A stretch of DNA of 64,000 bases. It comes from Somniosus microcephalus. Its lineage: Eukaryota. Numbering within the stretch: the stretch's first letter is position 1; the number at the start of each line of letters is the position of its first letter. The stretch covers positions 40,238,001-40,302,000 of the forward strand of contig CM126217.1 in assembly GCA_052327205.1 (NCBI GenBank), read 5' to 3'. Below, piece by piece: positions 6,351 to 62,482 of this stretch. Both the position numbers and the translations under genes were made by a program. The notes beneath the pieces are model-generated. The model made no database searches. It was given only the letters and a program-made list of their open reading frames with translations, and was not told where the DNA came from.

Positions 6351-7305
6351 TTGGTTAACTGAAAGGTTGGTGATTGCTAACATGATCAATAACCACAACT
6401 TCCTTACCCCACACGCTCAAAGCACATGACCACACCCAGAAACAGTAGCATTGCCAAACTTGACAACATTTTAAAAACTCCAGTTTATTTTATAAACAAT
6501 AGACAGGAAAATAATTTAAAGGCTGTAATGTAATTGAGAGATTCAGATAATGTTTGTGCATGACTTGAGCCTTGCCCTCAAACCCCTTGATTTCACTGTT
6601 GCATTGTATCAGCCCCTCCGATTGATCTGGCATCCTGGCTAGAACCTCAACGGGACAAACTACTCAGATTTTGTGAAATGTGATAGGTGACTTGATTACC
6701 CCAGGATAGTCATAGCTCTATCTATCAAATGATTAGGGCAAACAATATGGCGCAAAGTAACATGCTGTGACAAATCCCACAGATTTCTGCACTTACCACA
6801 TGTAGCAGTTTCCTGCCTTAGTACCACAATTTTGCTTAAAAAGTCCCAGAGTCATCAAAAGCATTGCTTTCTGAACAGATTTGCATGATAACAAAGTATT
6901 TGTCCTATCAATGATTAAATGAACTGAATGTTCAGGGTCATTAAACATAGGGGCCTAGAATTTCAGTATAGCCAGTTTTGGGGCGCTAACGTTAGCGCCC
7001 GCCCGAAGTTAGCGCCCGCCCCAAAGTTGCGCCCCCTTGCCGGAAATTCAGTCGCTTCGCCCTAAGAGGTTGCTGGAGCGCTAAAAGAGGCGTTCCACTA
7101 CTATCTTTAGGCGCTAAGCCGGCGGTGCAGAGGGATAGCGCCGAGGCGGGGCGCAACGCGGGTGCGGTCGTTTTTTGATTGACAGCAGACCCCGTGGCGC
7201 CGACCAGCTCTTAAAGGGGGAAGGGACGATTTGGTCTGCTGCCACGCCCTGCACACTGCAGCTTTGCAAATAGGCCTCAACACTGCTGCTCAGCCCCAGG
7301 GAGTC

Positions 7306-9213
7306 ATGGCAACGCCAGAGAAGGCCCGTGAGCGTGCCCTGCGCTTCTCAGAGCGTGATCTGGGAATAATGGTGACAGCTCTGGAGAAGAGGCGCAGGAT
7401 CTTGTTCCCACAGACTGGGAGGAATCCGACCCACCAAGAATACACCAGAGCCTGGAAGCAGATCGCCAACAGGGTGACGGTCACCGGCGATGCCCCCAGG
7501 ACCCACACCCAATGTCGGAAAAAATACAACGACCTGACCAGGATTGTCAGGGTGAGTACCCTTTCCAGTCTCCTCCTCATTCTTGCATGTACACCTGACA
7601 TGATGGGCAAAGGGAGCTGAAAGGCCTAATGGCCAGCCCTCAGCCAGCAGCTTTGGGACAGTCATGAGCATCAATTGCCCATTCTGCACTCTACACTCTG
7701 GCCAAGCTATTCCACCATGGGAGGCAGTGCACAGTACATCAGGGCTACACTCTGGCCAAGCTATTCCACCATGGGAGGCAGTGCACACTACATCAGGGCT
7801 ACACTCCGTACTTACAGCCCGTCCTTTCTCTTGCAGGCTAAACTTGCCAATAATCGCCAGGCCCGTGCCAGGACCAGGGGAGGCCGCGCCAAGCTGCAGA
7901 AGCTCACTCCCCTGGAGGAGCGCGTGAGTGGGCTCATGGGAGCCCGGCTGATCGTGCCCACAGCGTGCGGAGTAGCCGACCCTCCACTGCCCGGCAATGG
8001 TAAGGACCTCGCCTTTTGGCCCTCTCGCGTCGCACTTGCGCATCCGAGCTACCTCCTTTGCCACTGTCCCACCAATGCGCTGAATGCCACCAGTCCTGAC
8101 TCCCTCGCTGACGCCGTCTCCTCACTCTGAAGCTACTCTTGTGCATTCCTGCTTTCAGCTGGTGACGACCAGGTCCCTGAAGCTGCCAGTGACAGCCCCT
8201 CCGAGCAGGAGGAGGAGGAGGAGGAGGAGGAGCAAGAGCAAGCCGGACCATCAGGGGAACACTCAGGTCCCGCAGGAGAGGACGAAATGATTGACACGTC
8301 CTCACTGGATGAGTGCCTGGACCAACTGTCGCAGGGGATTGCAGCTGCTGGGACCAGTGGCGTCCAGCCACCCAGGAGTCCTGCGCGTGGGCCGCGGCCT
8401 TCCCCCAAAAGGGGGGAAGGATCAGAGGGGAGTGCAGTTGATCGGGACACTCGCCGCCACCAACGTGGCAAGGTTCCCCTAGTTCGGTCCCCTGCTCCCC
8501 AGCGGGAGAGTCCCAACTCCAGTCCGGACACCTTCACCTCGGAGGAGGCGCGGAAGCTGGACAAGATGGCCGAGGATTCGGACCGGCGCCACACGGAGCT
8601 CATGCGCGTGGTGGGGCGCATGCCTGAGGCCATCGAGTCGCTGGCGACCAGTGTGCGCGAGTTCGGGGCATCAACTGCCGCGAGTGGCCGCATGCTCACT
8701 GATGCCGTCAAGTCCCTGGTGGGTGTGATGCGGGCGCACACCAGGACAACAGGGGCACTCACTGCTGCCACACGCGCTGTCTCAGGCAGGCATCGCCAGG
8801 GCACCCGCCGCGCTGCAGCATCCCAGCGAGCCGCCCCTCGGCTGATTGGTGCGGATCCTGCAGTGCGGACCCGGCCGAGTGCCAGCGTGCCACAGCACCA
8901 GCCAGCGCATCCCAGACGCCAGCTTGCCCACATTGCGCCATCCGTTGCCGCCACTCCCCCACTGGGGCGTCAAGGGCAAGCGGCTGGAGCTGATGATGGC
9001 CAGGCTCAGGTGCGCCACTCAGCAGCCGGCCCCTCGAGGCCCAAAGGCCGTGTAGGCTGCCCCCCAAGGGCATCTGGCGGAAGGACATCTGAGCCTCAGG
9101 CGCCTTCCCCCAGCCTCGCAGCAGCCACTGGGCAGAGCTTGCGAAGGAGCAGCAGACCGGGCAGGGCAGGCAAAAGGCTGGACAAGGTCTCGCCCTCGCG
9201 GGCCACTCAGTAG
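7306..9213 (+). CDS. Harbinger Myb/SANT-like (trihelix, NAIF1/MSANTD-like) DNA-binding protein; 3 exons 7306-7551, 7837-7999, 8159-9213; ~487 aa
   Basis: Motifs RFSERDL..RRRILF..AWKQIA..RTHTQCRKKYNDL and TRGGR..LTPLEERV. GT-AG introns with polypyrimidine tracts (phases 0 and 1). The joined exons total 1464 nt with no internal stop. Confidence 0.85.
7691..7806. repeat. 54-bp tandem duplication in Myb-gene intron 1
   Basis: CTACACTCTGGCCAAGCTATTCCACCATGGGAGGCAGTGCACA(G/C)TACATCAGGG x2, plus a partial third copy. Confidence 0.9.
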
Positions 9214-9442
9214 AGGGTGTGGCCAGCTTTCGTTTTATATGGCGGTGGCCATCTTTCTTTTGCCCATGGTTGTTTGGTTCGTGGGCTTATTTTTTGCGTT
9301 AAGGCCGAGGTTGAGGCCAGGTTTGTACAAATGTGGAGTTACTCCTCCCCAGTTTGTGGGAGTGAGTCGTTTGTTGGGCTTTTTGTGGGGCCCGTTGATT
9401 GTTTTTGGGGATTCATGTGGGAAGGGGTTTTCATTTTTGTGT

Positions 9443-9462
9443 AATAAATAATTATCTTTATT
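9443..9462. terminator. Opposed polyadenylation signals for the two convergent Harbinger genes
   Basis: AATAAA at 9443-9448 (+) and TTTATT at 9457-9462 (AATAAA on -), lying between the two stop codons. Confidence 0.6.
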
Positions 9463-9577
9463 CATAGAGTCTCCATGGTTGTTCTTGTTAGTGTTTGTTG
9501 GCTTCGCCGGCTGAGGGCTTGCGGAGCGGCTGCATTCATCTTCCCTCATGGCCACAAGGCATTCCCTGACAGGGGGC

Positions 9578-10705
9578 TTAGAAGTAACGTGTAATAAGGT
9601 GGCGTCGCACGGCCCTTGGCCCTGGTCGCTCCCTCCTGGGAACGTACTCCTGCTCCTCCTGCTCCTCCTCCTGAGGTGGTGGTCCAACATCAGGTGGCAG
9701 TGCCTGAGTCCTGCGGATAGCCAGGTTATGTAGCATGCAGCAAACTACCACAAATTGGGAGACCCGGTCCGGCGAATACTGCAGAGATCCTCCGGAGCGA
9801 TCAAGGCAGCGGAACCGCTGCTTGAGGACCCCAATAGTTTGCTCGATGATGTTGCGGGTGGTTTGATGGCTCTCGTTGTATGCCTCTTCAGCAGCGGTCC
9901 TGGGCACGCGGAGCGGGGTCATGAGCCAGGTACACAAAGGATAGCCTTTGTCCCCGAGTAGCCATCCTCTTGGGGGAGGTTGTGCCTCGAACATGTCATG
10001 CACAGTACTCTGCCGCAGGATAAATGCATCGTGGCTGCTGCCTGGAAAGCTGGCATTGACAGCCATGATGCGCTGCTTGTGGTCACACACCAGCTGCACA
10101 TTCAGAGAATGGTAGCCCTTCCTGTTGCAATACTGCTCGCCATGCTCCAGAGGGGCCCGCAAAGCCACATGCGTACAGTCAATGGCGCCCTGCACCAAGG
10201 GGAAGGCCGCGAGTCTTGCAAATCCCAATACGCGCTGATGCTGGCTCTCCAGGGCCATGGGGAAGGAGATGAATTGGCGTCTCCTTCTGAACAGTGCTTC
10301 GGTCACCTGGCGGATGCAGCGATGCGCGCCGTACTGGGAGATGTTAGCTATGTCCCCAGCAGCGGATTGGAAGGAGCCGGTGGCATAGAAGTTCAATGCC
10401 ACAGTCACCTTCACTTCCACCGACAGAGACGTCCTGCACCTGAGCTTTGGACGCAGATCTCTGCGAAGCAGGTGGCAGATCTCTGCAACCACCTCCTTTC
10501 GGAATCGGAGCCTTCTAACACATCGCGCACCAGTCATGTTGAGGTAGGAGCGCTGCTGGCGGTATAGCCTGACTGGGTAAGGCCTACGTGGCCGACGCCT
10601 GTTGCCCCCTCTGCCTCTAGCCAGGGCTGCCCCTCTCACAATGCGTCTGCGAGCCCTACGGACATGGCGCTGCAGCTCCGCGTTGGCACCCCATGCAACC
10701 CCCAT
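9578..10705 (-). CDS. Harbinger DDE transposase (HARBI1-like), ~375 aa, intronless
   Basis: Motifs [65 protein letters not shown]. First ATG at 10705 (the ORF track starts upstream at 10738). Confidence 0.95.
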   Translation of the reverse strand: MGVAWGANAELQRHVRRARRRIVRGAALARGRGGNRRRPRRPYPVRLYRQQRSYLNMTGARCVRRLRFRKEVVAEICHLLRRDLRPKLRCRTSLSVEVKVTVALNFYATGSFQSAAGDIANISQYGAHRCIRQVTEALFRRRRQFISFPMALESQHQRVLGFARLAAFPLVQGAIDCTHVALRAPLEHGEQYCNRKGYHSLNVQLVCDHKQRIMAVNASFPGSSHDAFILRQSTVHDMFEAQPPPRGWLLGDKGYPLCTWLMTPLRVPRTAAEEAYNESHQTTRNIIEQTIGVLKQRFRCLDRSGGSLQYSPDRVSQFVVVCCMLHNLAIRRTQALPPDVGPPPQEEEQEEQEYVPRRERPGPRAVRRHLITRYF

Positions 10706-12479
10706 CAAATCCTGGCAGTCAAATTTCCAAAAGGCCACTTGCAGCGCTCTGGCCTGAGTCCAAAAATACCTGAGCTGTTGCTGCTTGAAACCAGTTAGCT
10801 ATCCTCCTTGTTGTGTGTCCAGAAATGCGTTGCACAAGAGTGTTTGCTGCAAAATGGCTGGCCTTTATACTGGAGGGTACGTCCCCTTTAATTTGCGCCC
10901 CCCGGGGCCCGCGCTGGCTGTGTTGCGTTCCCTTTTTCAAACGCTCCGGCCACCAGCCGCACAATGGGGCGGTCCGACTGAAGTTTGGAATCGGGGCGGC
11001 CAAAGGGCGTTGCACGAGGATGTGACGTCATTTTCTGCGCACGCATCCGGGCGGGCGCTAAACTTTGCGCCGGCGCTAACGGCCAACTTAATTTGGGGCG
11101 AGGCGCAAACTGCGCTGCGCCTGGGCGCAACACGCATAGCGGCCGACATTCACTTTTCTTTAGGCGCTAACTGCTGGCGCAACCAACTGAATTTCTAGGC
11201 CAGGGATCCTAAATATACATACAGTATATTATTGTTTTTTATAAAGAGCTAGAACCTTCTGGTAAAATCACTGTGCTGCCATCTTAATAATGGCCAGTGA
11301 ACATCCTAGTGTGATAGAGCAGGTCGGGTTCCTAAAATTGAAAAGATTTTTAAAAAATTAAATACCCTAATAATGGCCCTATTCTCAGTATACATTCAAA
11401 GGTTAAAGTGAAAGTACATTTGTTTCAAATGTATTTTTGTTGGTCTCACAATATCCAAAGATAATATTCCTTCCATAACATTTTCCAATTTCTAAATTAT
11501 ATTATTGATTTTTTTTAAAGCAGACTGACGTGCTGTGACATTTCCAGGTACAGTGGACTGTGGTTAGCCCTCTGATACATTACAGAATCTGTGTGCATCA
11601 AACCATTGAACAAAACTATGGTGCAAGCTAGCAATTGACTTCACAACAGATTTTTTCACCCCAAACAATATGGAAAATTCCCTGCTGCTAAAATAAAGGC
11701 CAAAATACAGAACAGTTCATGCTTTGTTATCACAATAATATCACTGAACTGACTGGGCAGAACAGGGTCTGAACATCAATTCACGAGAGTGTGTACTCTG
11801 GTCACTCTGGCTATCTTGACGGCAAGTCTACTGACCAATCACTGGGCACTTCTTGGCATTAATCATTTACTCAAATTGCCACAACCCAGTGTTAGTTATG
11901 CAAAAAATGATCGTGTTCACATGATCTCTACATTTTTTCATTAGTCTGCCGACTGGGAGCAAAGCATTTAAATCAGAGAGGGAGGGAGGAAAGGGAGTTA
12001 TAATCTTAATGTACAAGCAGCAGCAATAAACTGTCTTAACATTTTGCGCCAATCATCAAACACCAGACAATGTGAACAGGTCTGCACTTTCTTTCATTTT
12101 ATTACATTTTTAAAAATTTGAGAAATGTTTTTTGATGATTTCAATAGACTGAATTCAAGTTTTCATGTTGTTGATGTAAAACATTGAAAATATTCATCAG
12201 TAAGTTTGATCACTTTAGTTTCTGTTTAAAGCCATTGAGAGGTCCATGGTAAAAGAATCTTTGGCACTGTGCACCCCTACATAAGGTCTCCCTAAGATAT
12301 AGTGTATCTAGATGACAAGTATGACTCATTACCTGGGGTGGCAGCTGTCCATCAACAGGTGTCCAGACTCATCTTTCAATGATCTTCTAATACTTGAGAT
12401 CTTCTGTACTTTGAATACTCATTTTTCTTTGACCTTAAAAAAAAACAAAAGAAAGTTTTGAAATCTCACCAATGTATAG

Positions 12480-47334: not shown

Positions 47335-49510
47335 ACCTTGCATTTATATCATGCCTTTAATGCAGAAAGCTTCTCCGAGCAACTTCAAAGATGTATGAGA
47401 CAAATGAATCCTGAGCCAAACAAGGGAAAAGTTGGAGTGGTGATCAAAAACTTGGTTGAAGAGTTGAGTTTTAAGGAGGGACAGAAAAGTTTAGCGAGGG
47501 AATTGCAAAATGTGGGAACTAGACAACTAAAGGCATGACTGCCAATGGTAGAGCAATGGGAGGGGGATGAACAAGAGGACTGGAGAGTTTGAGGGGAGAT
47601 TGCAGCACTTTAGAGAGATTGGGAGAGGTGAGGCTATGGAGGGATTTAAACACAAGGATGACAATTTCAAGTTTCATGCATTGGGAGAATACAGCCAATG
47701 TAGATCAGCGAAGTCAGGGGTGAAGGTGTGAGTAGAATTTTCTGCAGGGTAAAATATGGGCAGAATAGTTTTGGATGAGGTGAAATTTATAGAGGGTGGA
47801 GGATGGAAGGGTGGCAAGGAAAGGATTGGAGTTATCAAGTCTGGAGGTGGCAAAGACATGGATAAGGGTTTCAAAGGCAGGTGGGCCAAGGTAGGGGTGG
47901 AGGAGGGCAATGTTACAGAAGTGGAAGTATGTGGTCCTTGCAATAGAAAGGATATGGGGTAGGAAACTCAGCTCAGAGTCAAACAGTCTGTCAGCCTGAG
48001 AGGTGGTCTGGGAAGGGGTTGAAGGCAGGGGCCAAAGACAATGGCTTCCATCTTCCTAATGTTTAACAATTAGGAGCAGGAGTAGGCCATACGGCCCTTC
48101 GTGCCTGCTCTGCCATTCAATAAGATCATGGCTGATCTTCGACCTCAACTCCACTTTCCCGCTCGATCCCCATAGCCCTTAATTCCCTTAATGCCCAAAA
48201 ATCTAAGAATCTCAGTCTTGAATATACTTGAACATACCCCTCTGGGGTAGAGAATTCCAAAGATTCACAACCCTCTGAGTGAAGAAATTTCTCCTCATCT
48301 CAGTCCTAAATGGCCCACCCCTTGTCCTCTGACCCCTAGTTCTAGACTCTCCAGCCAGCAGAAACAGCCTCTCAGCATCTACCCTGTCAAGCCCTCTAAA
48401 AATATTATATGTTTCAATGAGATCACCTCTCATTCTTGGAGTCCAAAAATCTACCTATCTCAGCCTTGAATATACTCAACGACTGAGCATCCATGGCACT
48501 TTGGGGCAGAAAATTCCAAAGATTCACAACCCTCTGAGTGAAGAAATTCCTCCTCATTTCAGTCAAAAAAGGCCGGCCCCTTTTCCTGAGAATATTTTTT
48601 TTATTATTCGTATATGGAATGTGGGCGTCGCTGGCAAGGCCAGCATTTATTGTCCAGCCCCAACTGCCCCCGAGAAGGTGGTGGCGAGCCGCCCCCCCCG
48701 AACCGCCGCAGTCCGCGCGGTGAAGGCACCCCCACAGTGCTGCTAGGGAGGGAGTTCCAGGATTTTGCTCCATGGAGACTGCTCTTGCATTGGTCCAGTC
48801 CATATGTCCAATTCTTTCCGCACTTATCCAGTCCTACATTAAGCCCAGCTCGCCCATCACTTGGTCCTACACACCCCAACACATTCATTTCAAAATCCTA
48901 CCCCTCGTCTATAAATTCCTCCATCAACGTGCTCCACTCTAGGTTTGCAATCTGTTGCAGCTCTATACCCACCCCACAAACCCTTTGTACCTCCACACTC
49001 GTGATGTGGAGATGCCGGTACCGGTTGGACTGGGGTGGACAAATGCGAGAAGCCACACAACACCAGGCCATAGTCCAACAGCTCCAACTGAAATCACAAG
49101 CCCTCGGAGTTCTGCTCCCCCGCCAGGTGAATGTTTAGTTGCTGAAGTTAATGCTCATTCAAGAATGGATGTCGAGCAAGCTGTCTGTCAGCATGGAGAG
49201 AGCTGGTGGAGAAGGAGAGCTGGGTGTCATCAGCACTCATGTGGAAGCTGACCCCATGTCTGTTGATAATGCTGCCAAAGGGCAGCATGTAGATGAGGAA
49301 GAGAATGGGTACAAGGATGAATCCTTCAGGAACTCTGAAATGGTGCAATGGTGGGAAAAGAAGCTATTGCTAGAGATGCTCTAGCTATTATCAGTAACGC
49401 ATGAGTGGAAGCAAGCTAGGGCAGTCCGAGGGAGCTGAACAATGGAGGAAAGATGTTGGAGGAGGATGGTGTGCCTGACTCTATTGAAGGTTGCAGAGAG
49501 GTTAGGGGAG
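47335..49510 (-). mobile_element. Decayed L2 LINE, interrupted by the insertion at 48066-49129
   Basis: 3' tail at 47335; RT-like VPEGFILVPILFLIYMLP..HMSADDTQL at 49150-49350; L2 sequence is continuous across the insert. Confidence 0.8.
48066..49129 (-). mobile_element. Chimeric retro-insertion: CR1 3' end + two more CR1 3' pieces + second LINE-family 3' end + antisense L2-like piece + Penelope-type end
   Basis: Flanked by the 8-bp direct repeat AATGTTTA (48058-48065, 49130-49137). CR1 pieces match 62490-62860; segment 48596-48690 matches the reverse complement of 50828-50915. Confidence 0.75.
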
Positions 49511-50129: not shown

Positions 50130-51490
50130 GAAACTGTTTAGGGGTAGGGCCATTAAGAAATGAATGAGGCAAGCTTGTGGTGGAAAGTGAGGGAATAGCA
50201 GAAATACTAAATAAGTACTTTGCCTCAGGTTTCACAGGGATGGCGGATATTGTAAAAGCACCAAAGATGAGCATAGAACATTTGGAGGTTATTGCTCAAG
50301 GTGAGATGGTACTAAACGAGTTCATCAATTTTAAGGTAGACAGATCACTGAGGCCTGATCATTTACATTTGAGGATTCTGAGTTAAGCTAGAGAAGAAAT
50401 AGCTGAGATTCTGAATATAATGTTCCAAAATTCTTTGTGACACATGGTAAACTACTTGCGTATAGAATATGGGATGAAATCACTAAGACATGGAAAAACA
50501 GGAATTATTTAGGGCAGATCAGCAAGGATTTCTAAAAGGCAGGTCATATTTGACCAATCTTATAGAATTCCTTGAAGAAATAACAGAGATAAAGGAAATG
50601 CGGTGGGCATGGTTCATATGGATTTTCAAAAAGCATTTGTTAATGTACCACATAAGAGACTATGGCAAGATAATAGCACATGGAATTGAAGGCAATGTGG
50701 GCACATGATAGATGGATGGCCGGAAAGCATAAAGCAAAGGAAAGGGGTGAAATTTCTGGGATTAGCAAGACATGATGAGTCATGTTCCACAATGGCTTGT
50801 TTTGGGGCTACACTTATTTACTTTATGATCACCTTCTCAAGGACAACTAGGGATGGGCAATAAATGTTGGCCTTGCTAGTGACGCCCACATCCCATGAAC
50901 GAATATAAAAAAAAATCTGAATAAAGTCAAGCAGAATTATTGATTCTGTATCTAGAGGCATGAAATGCAAATGTAAGGAGTAACTGCTGAATTTGTACAA
51001 GACGTTAGTTAGGCTACATTTGGAGAATTGGGTGTAGTTTGTAAGTACACAACAACAGATATAGTACAGAGTCATTGGGATGTTACTAGGGATGAAAAGT
51101 TGCAGCTATGAAGAAAGACTTGAGAAGTTAGGGCTTTTCTTACTAGAACTGAGAAGGTTAGGGGGTATTCTGATTGAGATTGTGAAGGGTTCTGATAAGG
51201 TAAAACATAACAGTTTCCACTAATTGGCGATATGGTAACAAGAGGGCACAAATTTAAAATATTCATAAAAATAATTAATGGGAAGGTTACACAGGTGGTT
51301 AGAATGTGGAACTCTCTGCTACAAACGGTTGTTGATGGAGAGTCCATATATTCTTTTAAAGGTTCATTTAGTCGTTGTTTAAAAGGGAGCAATATGGGAA
51401 GAGAGGTAGGGAATGGGATTAGACCAGGTGGCTTATGTGGAGGAAAAAACAGTTCAGAGTTTTGGTCCAAAAACCCTGCTTCTGTGCTGT
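50130..51490 (+). mobile_element. Decayed CR1 LINE ORF2/3' fragment, with a short LINE 3'-end insert at 50828-50915
   Basis: AEILNKYFAS, QQGFLKGRSYLTNLIEF, TRGHKFK..VVRMWNSL. Confidence 0.8.
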
Positions 51491-57776: not shown

Positions 57777-58499
57777 AAAACCACGACAGCAAGATCCTCC
57801 ATCTGTAATGACAATCCCCAATAGTAAAGGTAAAAATCTGATACATTAAGAAACCGCCTATCATCCAACCAATCAACACAAATAAAGGCAAACAATATCT
57901 GTTACATTAACTTACATCACTGATTTAACTTCTTCAACTGATGATATTAATGAAACCCATTAATGGCCTGGACTTTGTGGTCAGCGGCGAATGAACGGAG
58001 CTTGCTGTTCATTAGCTTACAGCTGCCCACAGACTTTTTGTGGCCTTTTGAGCGGCAACTTACTGTCATTGGGAGACTGATACAGCGTGATGCCCTCTAC
58101 AGGGAATCTGGGACCTGTGTGAACAGATTAGGCAACAGCTTGTCTCTTCAACCAATCAGATTGAAGAATCCTCACTGAGGCATGTAGGGCTAAAAATGCG
58201 ATTGCCCCCCCAAAATGGGCGAGGGGATCGTGATGCGGGATTTACCAGCGCCCGTTCGAAGTAATGCAGGCAGCACGCCAACTATGTGCTGCCTGCTAAT
58301 TAGAATGGTTGCGGCGTGCAGCCCAGCGCTGAACACGCAGCTGAGTGGCTGTACGTTTAGCAGAGGGCCCAAGTTCATGTGAGGCTAGCACCAATTAAAG
58401 CTAGCCTACACTTCTTAAAACCAGCCTGCGCCTCAAAGGGGAGGTGCATTCTGGCTGCAGCAGGTGATTCAACTGGTTGGGGAACAAAGTGTGAGCAGG

Positions 58500-60376
58500 A
58501 AGAAGTATTAATAGTAGAACAGGGGAGAGAGCATGCTCCAAGGTTCTCGGATGCAGCACTGGAGGCCTTGGTGCAGGATGTGGACAGTTGGAGGGAGGTA
58601 CTGTTTCCACAGTGGGGCAGGAGGTCCTCCAGACAAATTCAGAAAATGGGAGCAGATAGCCATCGTGGCCAATGCCAGCAGTGTAGCCCCAAGGACCTGG
58701 ATGCAGTGCCGCAAGAAGTTTAATGGCCTCACACGAATGGTCAAGGTTAGTTAATTCATCTTCAAATACCGTATCCTTACAACTGAACGACTAGCCTCAG
58801 ACACTGCTCAATCCACCACACCCCCTTCACTCACCTACCAACAATCTCTATCAATCACAACTCATACCTTCACCTCACCCTCACACACTTACCACTGCTG
58901 CAAGCCTCACACCCACATCTCACAGCTGGCACACACTGCCAGCTATTCAACCATGACAGGCACATCACTCACTGACACACTTCTCTCTCTCTTGCAGGAC
59001 AAGGTGGTTAATAACTGGAGGCAGCAGGTCCTACCCGGCGGGGGACAGGCGCACCTACATAAACTGACCCCCATGGAGGAGACGATGCTGGAGATAATTG
59101 GAGTGGCCATCGCTGAGCCCGTGGCCAGCGGCAGGACTGAAACAATACAAGATGACAGTATCCTCATACCTAATCCTCATTCACACATCCCACTTCCCCT
59201 TCATCCCACAATCTCTTCTGATTTACAGGTGGTGTAAGCGTGCACCTCCTGCTTTTCCCCCACCCTCACTGCTCCCCTCACCGCAACCCTACCCTTGTGC
59301 CCTTCTCCTTTCAGATAGTCAAAAACTGCAACCTGGCCAGGCAGTGGTGGAGGAGCAGGAAGTGCAAGAGGAAGGAGGAAGTCTTGCAGAATACCCACCG
59401 TCACTCGATTCCACAGTCGCAACCACCAGCTCAGATACTGACACTCCGCGTACTTTAGAGGATACGTTAGACGCGAGATCTGCATGTGGTGAGACACCGG
59501 GCATGAGTGGCCTGCAACCAAGGCAGGAGGAATGAATAGCGCAGGTGCTAGCTCCCCGGAGGGTGAGGTCACACACAAGTACTGCTGCACGGGACTCAGA
59601 GGGGTGGCCTACAGAAGAAGGCTGATGGGTATGCACAATGAAATGCTTGGTGCATTGGCAGGCCTGCCAGAAAGCCTGAGTGCAATGTCAAGGAGCATGG
59701 AGGAGTCCGGCACCAACCTTGCACAGGGCTTTGCGCAGAGCTTGAAGCCCATCCTTTCCAGCATGGAAGTGATGGGTAACTCCAGGAGCACACTTGTGCT
59801 GATGCAGTGCCTGATAGCACATTGCAGCACAAGCAGAAGCCACCCAACATGTGAGTGCTGCAGCGGAAGCTCAGACTGAAGTCACGCAAGCTCAGCTTGT
59901 TGCCACGCAAGCACGGACTACTGTCATCATGGCTGCAGTTACCAGTGTTGAAAGGGGCCTGCAGCGTGTCACAGCAGTCCAGCAATCTGTCCTCCCAACA
60001 GATTATTAGGATTGCTGAGGCGCTGCCCAGGGGGAGTGGCAGTGGCTCCGTGGAGCCCAAACCTGCTGTCCTCTGTCAGGATGACAGTATTCATCCTCTC
60101 ACAACTGCCACTCCGCCAGTGCCCTTTCTGTTGCCTGTCAGCCAGCCAGCCCAGACTGCTACCGCCCATGCCGAGGTGGTGCAGTTTAAAGACGGGTCTT
60201 CTAGGCCTAGAACTGCTCGAGGTCATCCTTCAAGGCCATCTATAGTCTCCCCTGCGGAAAGTCAGCAGCCTTCCACTAGCCATGCTGCAGCCACTGGGGG
60301 AGCACTGCGTAGGAGCACTAGGACACGAAAAGGGACACAGAAGATAGCGACTAAGGGAATGCACAAGGGTGATTAG
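58500..60376 (+). pseudogene. Harbinger Myb/SANT gene pseudogene (exons ~58500-58745, 58998-59157, 59315-60376)
   Basis: APRFSDAALEALV..VLFP /frameshift/ WEQIA..PRTWMQCRKKFNGL; DKVVNN..GGG..LTPMEE; C-terminal AAATGGALRRS. Confidence 0.8.
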
Positions 60377-60536
60377 TTGACTTTGTTATGTAATATTGGA
60401 CGGATTGATGCATAAAATTGGTTTGGAATGTTTGTTTTGTGGTGGCTTTTATTTGGCGAAGAGGACATTGTGATGGTCAGTAACAGAGGGAAGGAAAGGA
60501 ATGGGACTGTGGGTGAATGGGGAACCGGGGTTGCGT

Positions 60537-61657
60537 TCACTGGTACCGCAGTCGGATCAGTTGGTCACGGGCAGCCCAGCCAGAAAGGGGCTGTTTTATT
60601 TGCCTCCTCCTCCTCTTCCTCTTTCTCAGCTCGTTGCTGTATACCTGGTGGCAAGGGCTGTGCCTTCATGATGATGAAGTTGTGCAGCATGCAGCAGAGC
60701 ACTTGAATCTTGAGATGCGCTCTGCAAGTTCTGCAGTGCTCCTCCAGAGCGGTCCAGGCAGCGGAAGCATTATTTAAGCACCCCAATGGTTTGCTCAATC
60801 ATATTCTGTGTGGTACCATGGCTTTCGTTATATACATGCTGCCCATGTGTGGTTGGGTTACGCACCAGAGTCATGAGCCAGGTGGTCAGCGGGTAGCCCT
60901 TGTCTCCCAGTAGCCACACTCTGGTTTATTGTGGTGGCTGAAAAGCAGATGGGACAGCGGACTGCTGCAGAATGAAGGCATCATGGCTGCTGCCAGGATA
61001 TCGAGCATTGACTTGAATGATGCGCTGAGTATGGTTGCACACCAGCTGGACATTGAGGGAGTGGAATCCCCTCCGGTTGTGGTACATCGCCGAGTTTACA
61101 TGCAGCGCCTGCAAAGCAATGTGTGCACAGTCAATGGCACCCTGCATCATATGGAAGCCTGCTATCCTGGTGAAACCATGTGCTCGCTCTGTCTGCTTCT
61201 CCTTGGCAAGAGAGAATGAAATGTATTCACCTCTCTTTGTATACAGAGCCTCAGTGACCTTACTTATGCAACGGTGAACGGCGAAGTGTGAGATGTTGCA
61301 AATGTCGCCTGCTCCAGCCTGGAACGAGCCCGATGCATACAAAGTCATGGCCTCGCTCAACTTCACAGCCACTGGCAATGACGTCCTATCCCTGCTCTGA
61401 GGCTGCAGATCTGCCTGCAACAGGTGGCAGATTTCAGTGAGCACCTCCTTAGTGCAGTGGAGTCATCGCATGCACTGTTTCTCACTGAGAATGAGGAAGG
61501 AGAAGTGGTCCCTCAAGACCCTGGGTGCATATGGCCTCCTGCTGAGAGCCCGTCTCCCCCTCCTCCCTCTTTGAGCAGCTTGTCCTCCTCTGTGTTGCCT
61601 CTGCTCATTCTTTCTATCATGCTGCAGGCCAAGGGGGATACAAACTACAGCACCCAT
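60537..61657 (-). pseudogene. Harbinger transposase pseudogene
   Basis: [60 protein letters not shown]; internal stops and frameshifts. Confidence 0.9.
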
Positions 61658-62482
61658 GTCTGGGAGCAACTGGTCTGAGCAAAAGTCTTGAAGTAACCTG
61701 CCACACGACTCCCTGGACACTTCAGCAACTTCAAATAAGATACCATACCAAGAAACACCTCTACAAACTCACCAAGAGCCAGTAGAAATCAATCAGCAAC
61801 TAACCTGAAAGCAGGTGATGATCCCTTTGAATAGCACTGGTGGGGGGGGGGTCCTTCCTGCTGCTGAATACATGTGCAGCTGTGAGAGGTTAAGAAAGAG
61901 CATTAGCTCCAGCGTTGAGGTCAAAAATGGCAGTGCTGGCGTCAAATCAGCATTGCATGCTGATTGACGTCACAATCTGCGTACTCTGCATATTTCCGGC
62001 TCACACTCCCTGCGCCAATGCAAACGACCTCACCAAAATGGCGTACGGACGTCATTTTGGACAAGAAACGGCACCCGTAGCACCGAAAAATGGGCACTAC
62101 GGAGCCAAATTTCTAGGCCGCATAGGCTAAACCAGGAAGTGTAAGTTAGAATATTTAATTCAAAGAGCCGGAATTAGCGATGGGTAATGACGGCGAACTA
62201 ACAGCGTTCGCCTTCATTACCCCTTAGAAACTGACCGCAACTTCAGGATATAGCGCATGCGCATCTAAACTCAGAAATCCTGAAGTTGCAGTCAGTCATC
62301 CACTGCTCCGACACTGGCTGCATGGTGCCCATCTCCCTCCCCACCCCCACCATAGCCAGAAATCAGTGTAATCAGTGAAATCAGTGAAACTGACGAAAAC
62401 TTGGGCTTTTCTGCGGTAATATCGCTGTTAAATACTTCATTAAATGTTAGGCCTTATTGGATTAGGTGTAACTGGGGTTTTA

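Follow-up and report, generated by a model that had tools for sequence, protein, structure and literature searches.

The DNA analysed here (the window; 64,000 nucleotides, G000:C16:40238001-40302000 of a 6.4-Gb genome whose repeats resemble those of cartilaginous fish) carries at 48064-49131 a 1,068-bp retrocopy of an RNA from a locus on contig C15, and we consider it very probable that this RNA was hyper-edited from adenosine to inosine by ADAR before a LINE enzyme reverse-transcribed it into germline DNA. Genome search and alignment place the donor at C15:129129886-129130947, with 93.6% identity over 1,068 columns. An earlier note on this DNA had proposed the same route, editing followed by write-in by a LINE reverse transcriptase, and the donor, a target-site duplication and two pairing partners at the donor locus now support it (positions below are those of the window unless a contig is named).

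Structurally, the copy is flanked by an 8-bp target-site duplication on the plus strand, with AATGTTTA at 48058-48065 (its last 2 nt common to the copy's 3' tail) and the right-hand unit at 49130-49137 (its first 2 nt common to the donor's loop). It splits an older repeat that occupies 48011-48057 and resumes at 49138, as projected from L099, in which this element is uninterrupted; the projection across the insertion site matches at 37 of 55 letters, and the matching 8-mer is present once in L099 and twice around the retrocopy. Insertion begins at 48064, and not at 48596 where the earlier note had set the start of the feature. Read on the minus strand, the copy ends inside a CR1-like tail and is 5' truncated relative to the donor, and since a LINE tail at the 3' end, 5' truncation and a target-site duplication are together the anatomy of a LINE-made retrocopy, the RNA strand is fixed, with the RNA sense on the minus strand. 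From the 3' end, all on that strand, the copy consists of two incomplete CR1-like LINE pieces with a LINE tail at their end, where priming likely took place (48064-48595, unedited), the 3' tail of a second LINE family (48597-48767), a low-copy middle that has no inverted partner and is unedited save for one A>G (48768-49000), and the 3' arm of a Penelope-like inverted repeat (49035-49131). The CR1-like pieces had been described as adjacent and unaffected; unaffected they are, but they form part of the same insertion. Domain searches found RVT_1 in a related CR1-like stretch of L079 and in L027, a copy of the second LINE family. CR1 is a provisional name for the pieces at 48064-48595, and the mobilising enzyme is putatively of the CR1 clade. 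Among 12 hits to the low-copy middle, near-full-length matches are confined to three loci, in the window, on C15 and on C6. A 4-nt insertion at 49020-49023, private to the window copy and outside the paired arm, duplicates neighbouring letters. The window at large has GC-rich islands at 7001-11000 (about 0.57-0.65) and 58001-62000 (0.51-0.55), the rest being near 0.38.

The direction of each change was set by an unedited paralogue on contig C6 together with family majorities, and the spectrum is given on the RNA strand. Within the two paired arms 27 of 77 As have become G, versus 4 of 207 elsewhere in the copy (Fisher p=1.3e-13); one of the 77 is donor-specific, with a family majority of C, which leaves 76 ancestral. 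Neither T>C nor T>G occurs among the 57 arm Ts, and G>A occurs at 1 of 54 Gs, giving a strand asymmetry of 27 A>G to 0 T>C (p=4e-7). Against the donor, 15 of the A>G changes lie at 48661-48743 in the LINE tail and 12 at 49046-49123 in the Penelope-type arm, where they account for 12 of 16 differences; in the part covered by C6, A>G makes up 19 of 30 window-specific substitutions. Family majorities are A at all 27 clustered sites, and the G>A signature of APOBEC-type deamination is not seen. When the window was scanned at the 3,512 positions with a majority from at least five copies, only these two segments were flagged. The earlier note had thus been right on a sense-strand A>G cluster in the LINE tail, on the same polarity in the Penelope-type piece and on the creation of CpGs (7 to 12 in one arm, 2 to 3 in the other). 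Its comparator was less fortunate: the eight differences from 50828-50915, five of them T>C, were correctly counted, but one T>C is a change in the comparator rather than an edit, and the supposed sister copy is an unrelated family member and not the source, the true donor being on C15. That comparator (50830-50916, plus strand, 81.6% to 48594-48680) is an ordinary unedited copy of the second-LINE-tail family.

Two further arm As, at 49087 and 48657, now read T and C, respectively, changes of a kind found at 0 of 207 As outside the arms and too few for a test; they possibly reflect inosine misreading or later mutation. At 48692-48699, editing made a G/C run from a mixed stretch, and this run exceeds its donor counterpart by one base. 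At L077:1410-1505 the run is even longer and has a short tandem duplication next to it; edited copies may thus promote slippage.

In the 20 kb of donor sequence searched there are exactly two inverted matches to the copied segment. The Penelope-like arm has its partner at C15:129129789-129129884 (96 nt, 94.8%), directly 5' of the junction, with a predicted hairpin of ~96 bp, and the LINE-tail arm has an antisense LINE-tail partner at C15:129131108-129131277 (170 nt, 87.6%), 160 nt 3' of the copied part. Folded alone, the hairpin has a 4-nt loop and a predicted energy of -177.3 kcal/mol (z -25); the 5' junction of the retrocopy maps to this loop or right next to it. The arms are predicted to pair in the donor RNA, the modelled fold joining 25 of the 27 edited As to the two partners. 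Both partners lie outside the copied part, and editing therefore likely took place on a longer precursor. The antisense LINE at the donor is 7.8% diverged from its family majority and so is likely older than the retrocopy. Inverted CR1-like copies are found only about 10 kb or more from the donor, at about 80% identity or less.

ADAR editing before reverse transcription would equally be expected if the duplexes had formed in trans, between this RNA and antisense repeat transcripts of other loci. Both edited families are indeed transcribed on both strands, the partners lie outside the copy and so need not have been part of the same RNA, and only part of the LINE duplex is edited. However, the CR1-like family is likewise transcribed on both strands, and the CR1-like pieces of the same molecule are unedited, which favours pairing in cis; moreover, the Penelope-type edits end at 49046, within the arm, whose limit is 49035, even though family sequence continues to about 49001, and the C6 sister is unedited. 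We therefore regard pairing in trans as very unlikely, and pairing in cis within a C15 transcript as the preferred reading.

Inverted second pieces occur within the 3-kb locus at 12 of 28 Penelope-type loci (L032-L060), directly or nearly adjacent in 7, and this frequency makes the family a rich source of hairpin RNA. The family has a GIY-YIG lead (atlas scores of 0.96-0.97, with GIY-YIG on 31% of one cluster's members), for which Pfam was blank. An Rfam hammerhead match was not significant (E 0.9), and a hammerhead-like core at L002:1150-1190 was recognized by eye against the motif in the accessible part of PMC4209133; the expected cleavage site coincides with the 5' end of neither the window copy nor L079. 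About 48 kb upstream of the donor stands a 12-kb tandem array (L134-L136, G000:C15:129069800-129081900).

The C6 paralogue (L003, G000:C6:266738428-266739867), 95% identical to C15 over about 1.45 kb, offers an unedited comparison. It has no Penelope-type insertion or hairpin, starts inside one SINE and stops at the tail of another just before the antisense LINE, and 1 of its 53 As has become G, which is what a sister made without the partner would show. We infer that C6 is itself a retrocopy, and C15 may be a repeated donor. Private changes outside the arms number 14, 13 and 14 in 756 columns across the three copies, and judged by these lineage-specific changes C6 split at about the same time as the window copy.

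Deamination might instead have acted on DNA, in the DNA strand of an RNA:DNA hybrid formed during reverse transcription or in an R-loop, and ADARs are able to edit DNA in model DNA:RNA hybrids (as given in the available text of PMC12925331). The spectrum speaks strongly against this, since deamination of antisense first-strand cDNA would be expected to appear as T>C on the RNA strand, where 0 of 57 are observed, and a hybrid would cover the whole copy rather than the partnered segments alone; given the RNA direction, which the tail and the junctions set, we hold it to be very unlikely.

GC-biased gene conversion, or conversion from a GC-rich subfamily, would fit the rise in GC and the location of the changes in high-copy repeats. 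Such conversion would have to produce the one-strand A>G excess described above, with T>G at none of the arm Ts, whereas the earlier note had expected strand-symmetric changes from it. A multi-copy subfamily sharing the edited bases, likewise named beforehand as evidence against editing, did not appear: relatives share at most 3 of the 15 edited sites among 29 LINE-tail alignments and 1 of the 12 among 40 Penelope-type alignments, and two pattern scans gave only one or two other hits each. Conversion is, on these counts, extremely unlikely, and editing of the RNA remains the preferred reading.

Genome-wide, pattern scans returned 3, 2 and 10 matches; the patterns were narrow, so these counts are a lower bound and not a rate. 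The earlier note had suggested a scan for similar copies flanked by target-site duplications; the pattern scans yielded four further places with A>G clusters (L077, L079, L108 and L106), with a duplication given for L079 (5 bp). At L077, on C19, 30 of 67 As read G, versus C at 4 of 43 Ts, and the copy reaches into LINE body absent from the donor, which makes it a separate event; its edited sites overlap those of the window copy beyond chance (p=0.027 after exclusion of three motif sites). L079, on C12, is arranged like the window copy, with an edited Penelope-type piece at its 5' end (10 of 24 As, no other change), followed by 1,364 bp that match C23 at 96.3% with no A>G excess (8 of 50 differences) and then a CR1-like tail; no pairing partner can be shown for L079, since its nearest relative, C23, has no Penelope piece. 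Counted beyond the searched motif, A>G affects 16 of 52 As at L108 and 5 of 15 at L106, with more in an adjacent piece. L108 sits within a block of at least 3 kb (L125-L129) that is present five times on C37 at 95-98%, and the edited SINE piece and its edits are common to all, recurring in four diverged duplicates. Searches for an unedited donor of L077 and of L108 found none. Set against a background A>G of 4.1% from 77 SINE alignments, the ten hits of the A>G SINE motif comprise two with a clear further A>G cluster, six at background, one ambiguous (L101) and one without an alignment (L107). A G>A control motif gave 15 raw hits, of which none had a non-CpG G>A cluster; the control thus had more raw hits than the A>G motif, and a triple change alone is no evidence. 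L078, considered as an edited copy, was rejected as a junction of nested repeats.

Neighbour context was pooled over the window, L077 and L079, the counts taking in motif-selected sites and some tail As. On the 5' side the edited fractions fall in the order U 13/21 (62%), A 25/61 (41%), C 20/58 (34%) and G 9/28 (32%) (p=0.13; U versus G, p=0.048), and on the 3' side G 18/29 (62%), A 24/60 (40%), C 17/47 (36%) and U 8/32 (25%) (p=0.027; G versus U, p=0.005). This order matches the one reported for hADAR1 in the accessible part of PMC3113232 (5' U>A>C>G, 3' G>C~A>U), the 5' effect being weak. In the window copy alone, a 3' G is favoured (8 of 14 edited) and a 3' U avoided (1 of 13). The depletion after 5' G that the earlier note had looked for is absent from this copy taken alone, where 5 of 15 such As over the whole arms are edited; its remark that surviving As mostly follow C or G does hold between the first and last edits (13 of 15, p=0.02-0.065, boundaries chosen afterwards), but it does not extend to the arms as a whole. 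A burst of reverse transcriptase errors in structured RNA, for instance from nucleotide imbalance, would also be expected to leave one-strand, one-class clusters, and two arm As did change to C or T. Against it are the changes themselves, which affect about 35% of As in two paired patches set apart by a clean gap, together with the ADAR-like 3' order and the hot spots common to independent copies, and such a burst is, like gene conversion, to be thought extremely unlikely.

Short-read contigs of X1, X2 and X3 (X1 and X2 from one sample, perhaps the assembly's source, and X3 from another sample of the same study) match 49024-49250, which holds the Penelope-type cluster, with 0 differences over 228 letters, in answer to the earlier note's call for independent DNA reads. 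An X2 contig matches 48537-48633, and X1 contigs match the donor's low-copy parts. Run X4, labelled as another organism, gave no coverage of the 5' junction, an uninformative result. An assembly or base-calling artefact is barely credible given these exact matches and the recurrence of the L108 edits in diverged duplicates, even though trace data can contain clustered G-to-A-type mismatch artefacts (according to the available text of PMC2873906) and no contig spanning the LINE-tail cluster at 48655-48745 is among the matches listed.

Transcription of the donor was sought in two RNA runs of unspecified tissue, of which 24% and 31% were read. The low-copy middle had zero depth in both, which gives no support for present transcription of the donor, and there was almost no depth upstream of the hairpin; reads over the arms are swamped by those of the families, and editing there cannot be judged. 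A Pfam scan of 20 of 144 mostly non-repeat ORFs in the 200 kb around the donor found only retroelement domains and no host gene, and no promoter was found for the donor either. One candidate promoter was an LTR element lying on the donor strand 1.1 kb upstream of the hairpin, but identity of its repeats over 211 nt makes it likely younger than the retrocopy, and we rejected it. A young Ty3/Gypsy-type LTR element at L073:4744-9021, with repeats that are identical over 211 nt, has protease, RT, RNase H and integrase with two stops, and is followed by a 20-bp tandem array. By domain search, A_deamin domains are present at six loci of the genome.

Mechanistically, the process may have begun with a germline transcript of at least 1.5 kb crossing the donor on its plus strand, which would have folded in cis into the ~96-bp hairpin and the ~170-bp duplex, where ADAR would have converted about a third of the paired As. 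A CR1-type reverse transcriptase would then have primed inside this RNA at the CR1 tail and read inosine as G, as inosine is read during reverse transcription (according to the accessible text of PMC5224506). Synthesis would have stopped, or been resolved, at the apex of the hairpin, leaving both partners behind; the copy would subsequently have been fixed with its gained CpGs, and the G/C run would later have slipped by one base.

Write-back of RNA edits into inherited DNA is usually argued indirectly, and here the controls lie within one genome, with pairing partners that predict where the changes fall. The proposed route leads from A-to-I editing to a permanent, clustered change that makes CpGs and homopolymer runs. 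We think it likely that RNA editing is a recurrent and datable source of inherited clustered mutation in the germline of this vertebrate, in which edited inverted repeats are written to DNA by internally priming LINE enzymes and spread by segmental duplication, and that the genome thereby preserves, molecule by molecule, the extent, fold and ADAR specificity of ancient germline RNAs, among them transcripts that have since fallen silent. The features of this copy also provide a recipe for a genome-wide search by which past germline ADAR activity and RNA structure could be read. On the practical side, edited copies distort repeat dating, and reads mis-mapped between them and their relatives can mimic RNA editing.

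Through target-primed reverse transcription, LINE tails can mobilise host sequence that lies upstream of them. The window copy resembles such products in its 3' LINE tail, 5' truncation, target-site duplication and 2-nt microhomologies, but differs in that the passenger RNA appears to have been edited beforehand and a longer precursor was likely primed internally. A-to-G hyper-editing is on record for the avian retroviruses RAV-1 and ALV (Felder 1994; Hajjar and Linial 1995, as cited in the available text of PMC12925331 and PMC8586724), where dense A>G changes in an inverted-repeat region (nearly 50% of As, compared with about 35% in the window copy) were likewise attributed to ADAR and recorded through reverse transcription; in contrast, the present case concerns a host, non-viral, composite transcript that was copied by a non-LTR route and fixed in the germline, and its donor, both partners and an unedited sister remain in the genome. 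ADAR hyper-editing of cellular RNAs, to go by the accessible part of PMC4365171, shares the clustered A>G in repeats near an inverted partner and the enrichment of a downstream G, but its record is in RNA only whereas ours is in DNA, and the depletion of upstream G is weak or absent here. With the APOBEC-edited LTR retrotransposons of vertebrates (PMC4866542, as far as its available text goes, which describes other mismatch classes as very rare) our copy has in common strand-biased deaminase clusters in germline copies, polarised by source and consensus; those are G>A changes made on cDNA and confined to LTR elements, unlike the A>G changes tied to RNA pairing in a non-LTR copy. L1 RNA itself is without ADAR1 edits in cell culture (accessible portion of PMC5224506), and the accessible part of PMC12548423 mentions, without an ADAR context, that one endogenous mouse provirus has an excess of A>G. 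Germline-fixed edited non-LTR retrocopies are not described in the available portions of PMC4365171, PMC2873906, PMC5974252, PMC4209133, PMC7186786, PMC12548423 and PMC3197674, and no description of ADAR-edited ones was found in the literature at the level of abstracts, which does not establish their absence from print. Compared with all of these systems, the components are known, and what this case adds is a complete natural control, with donor, partners and unedited sister, at a locus without evident function.
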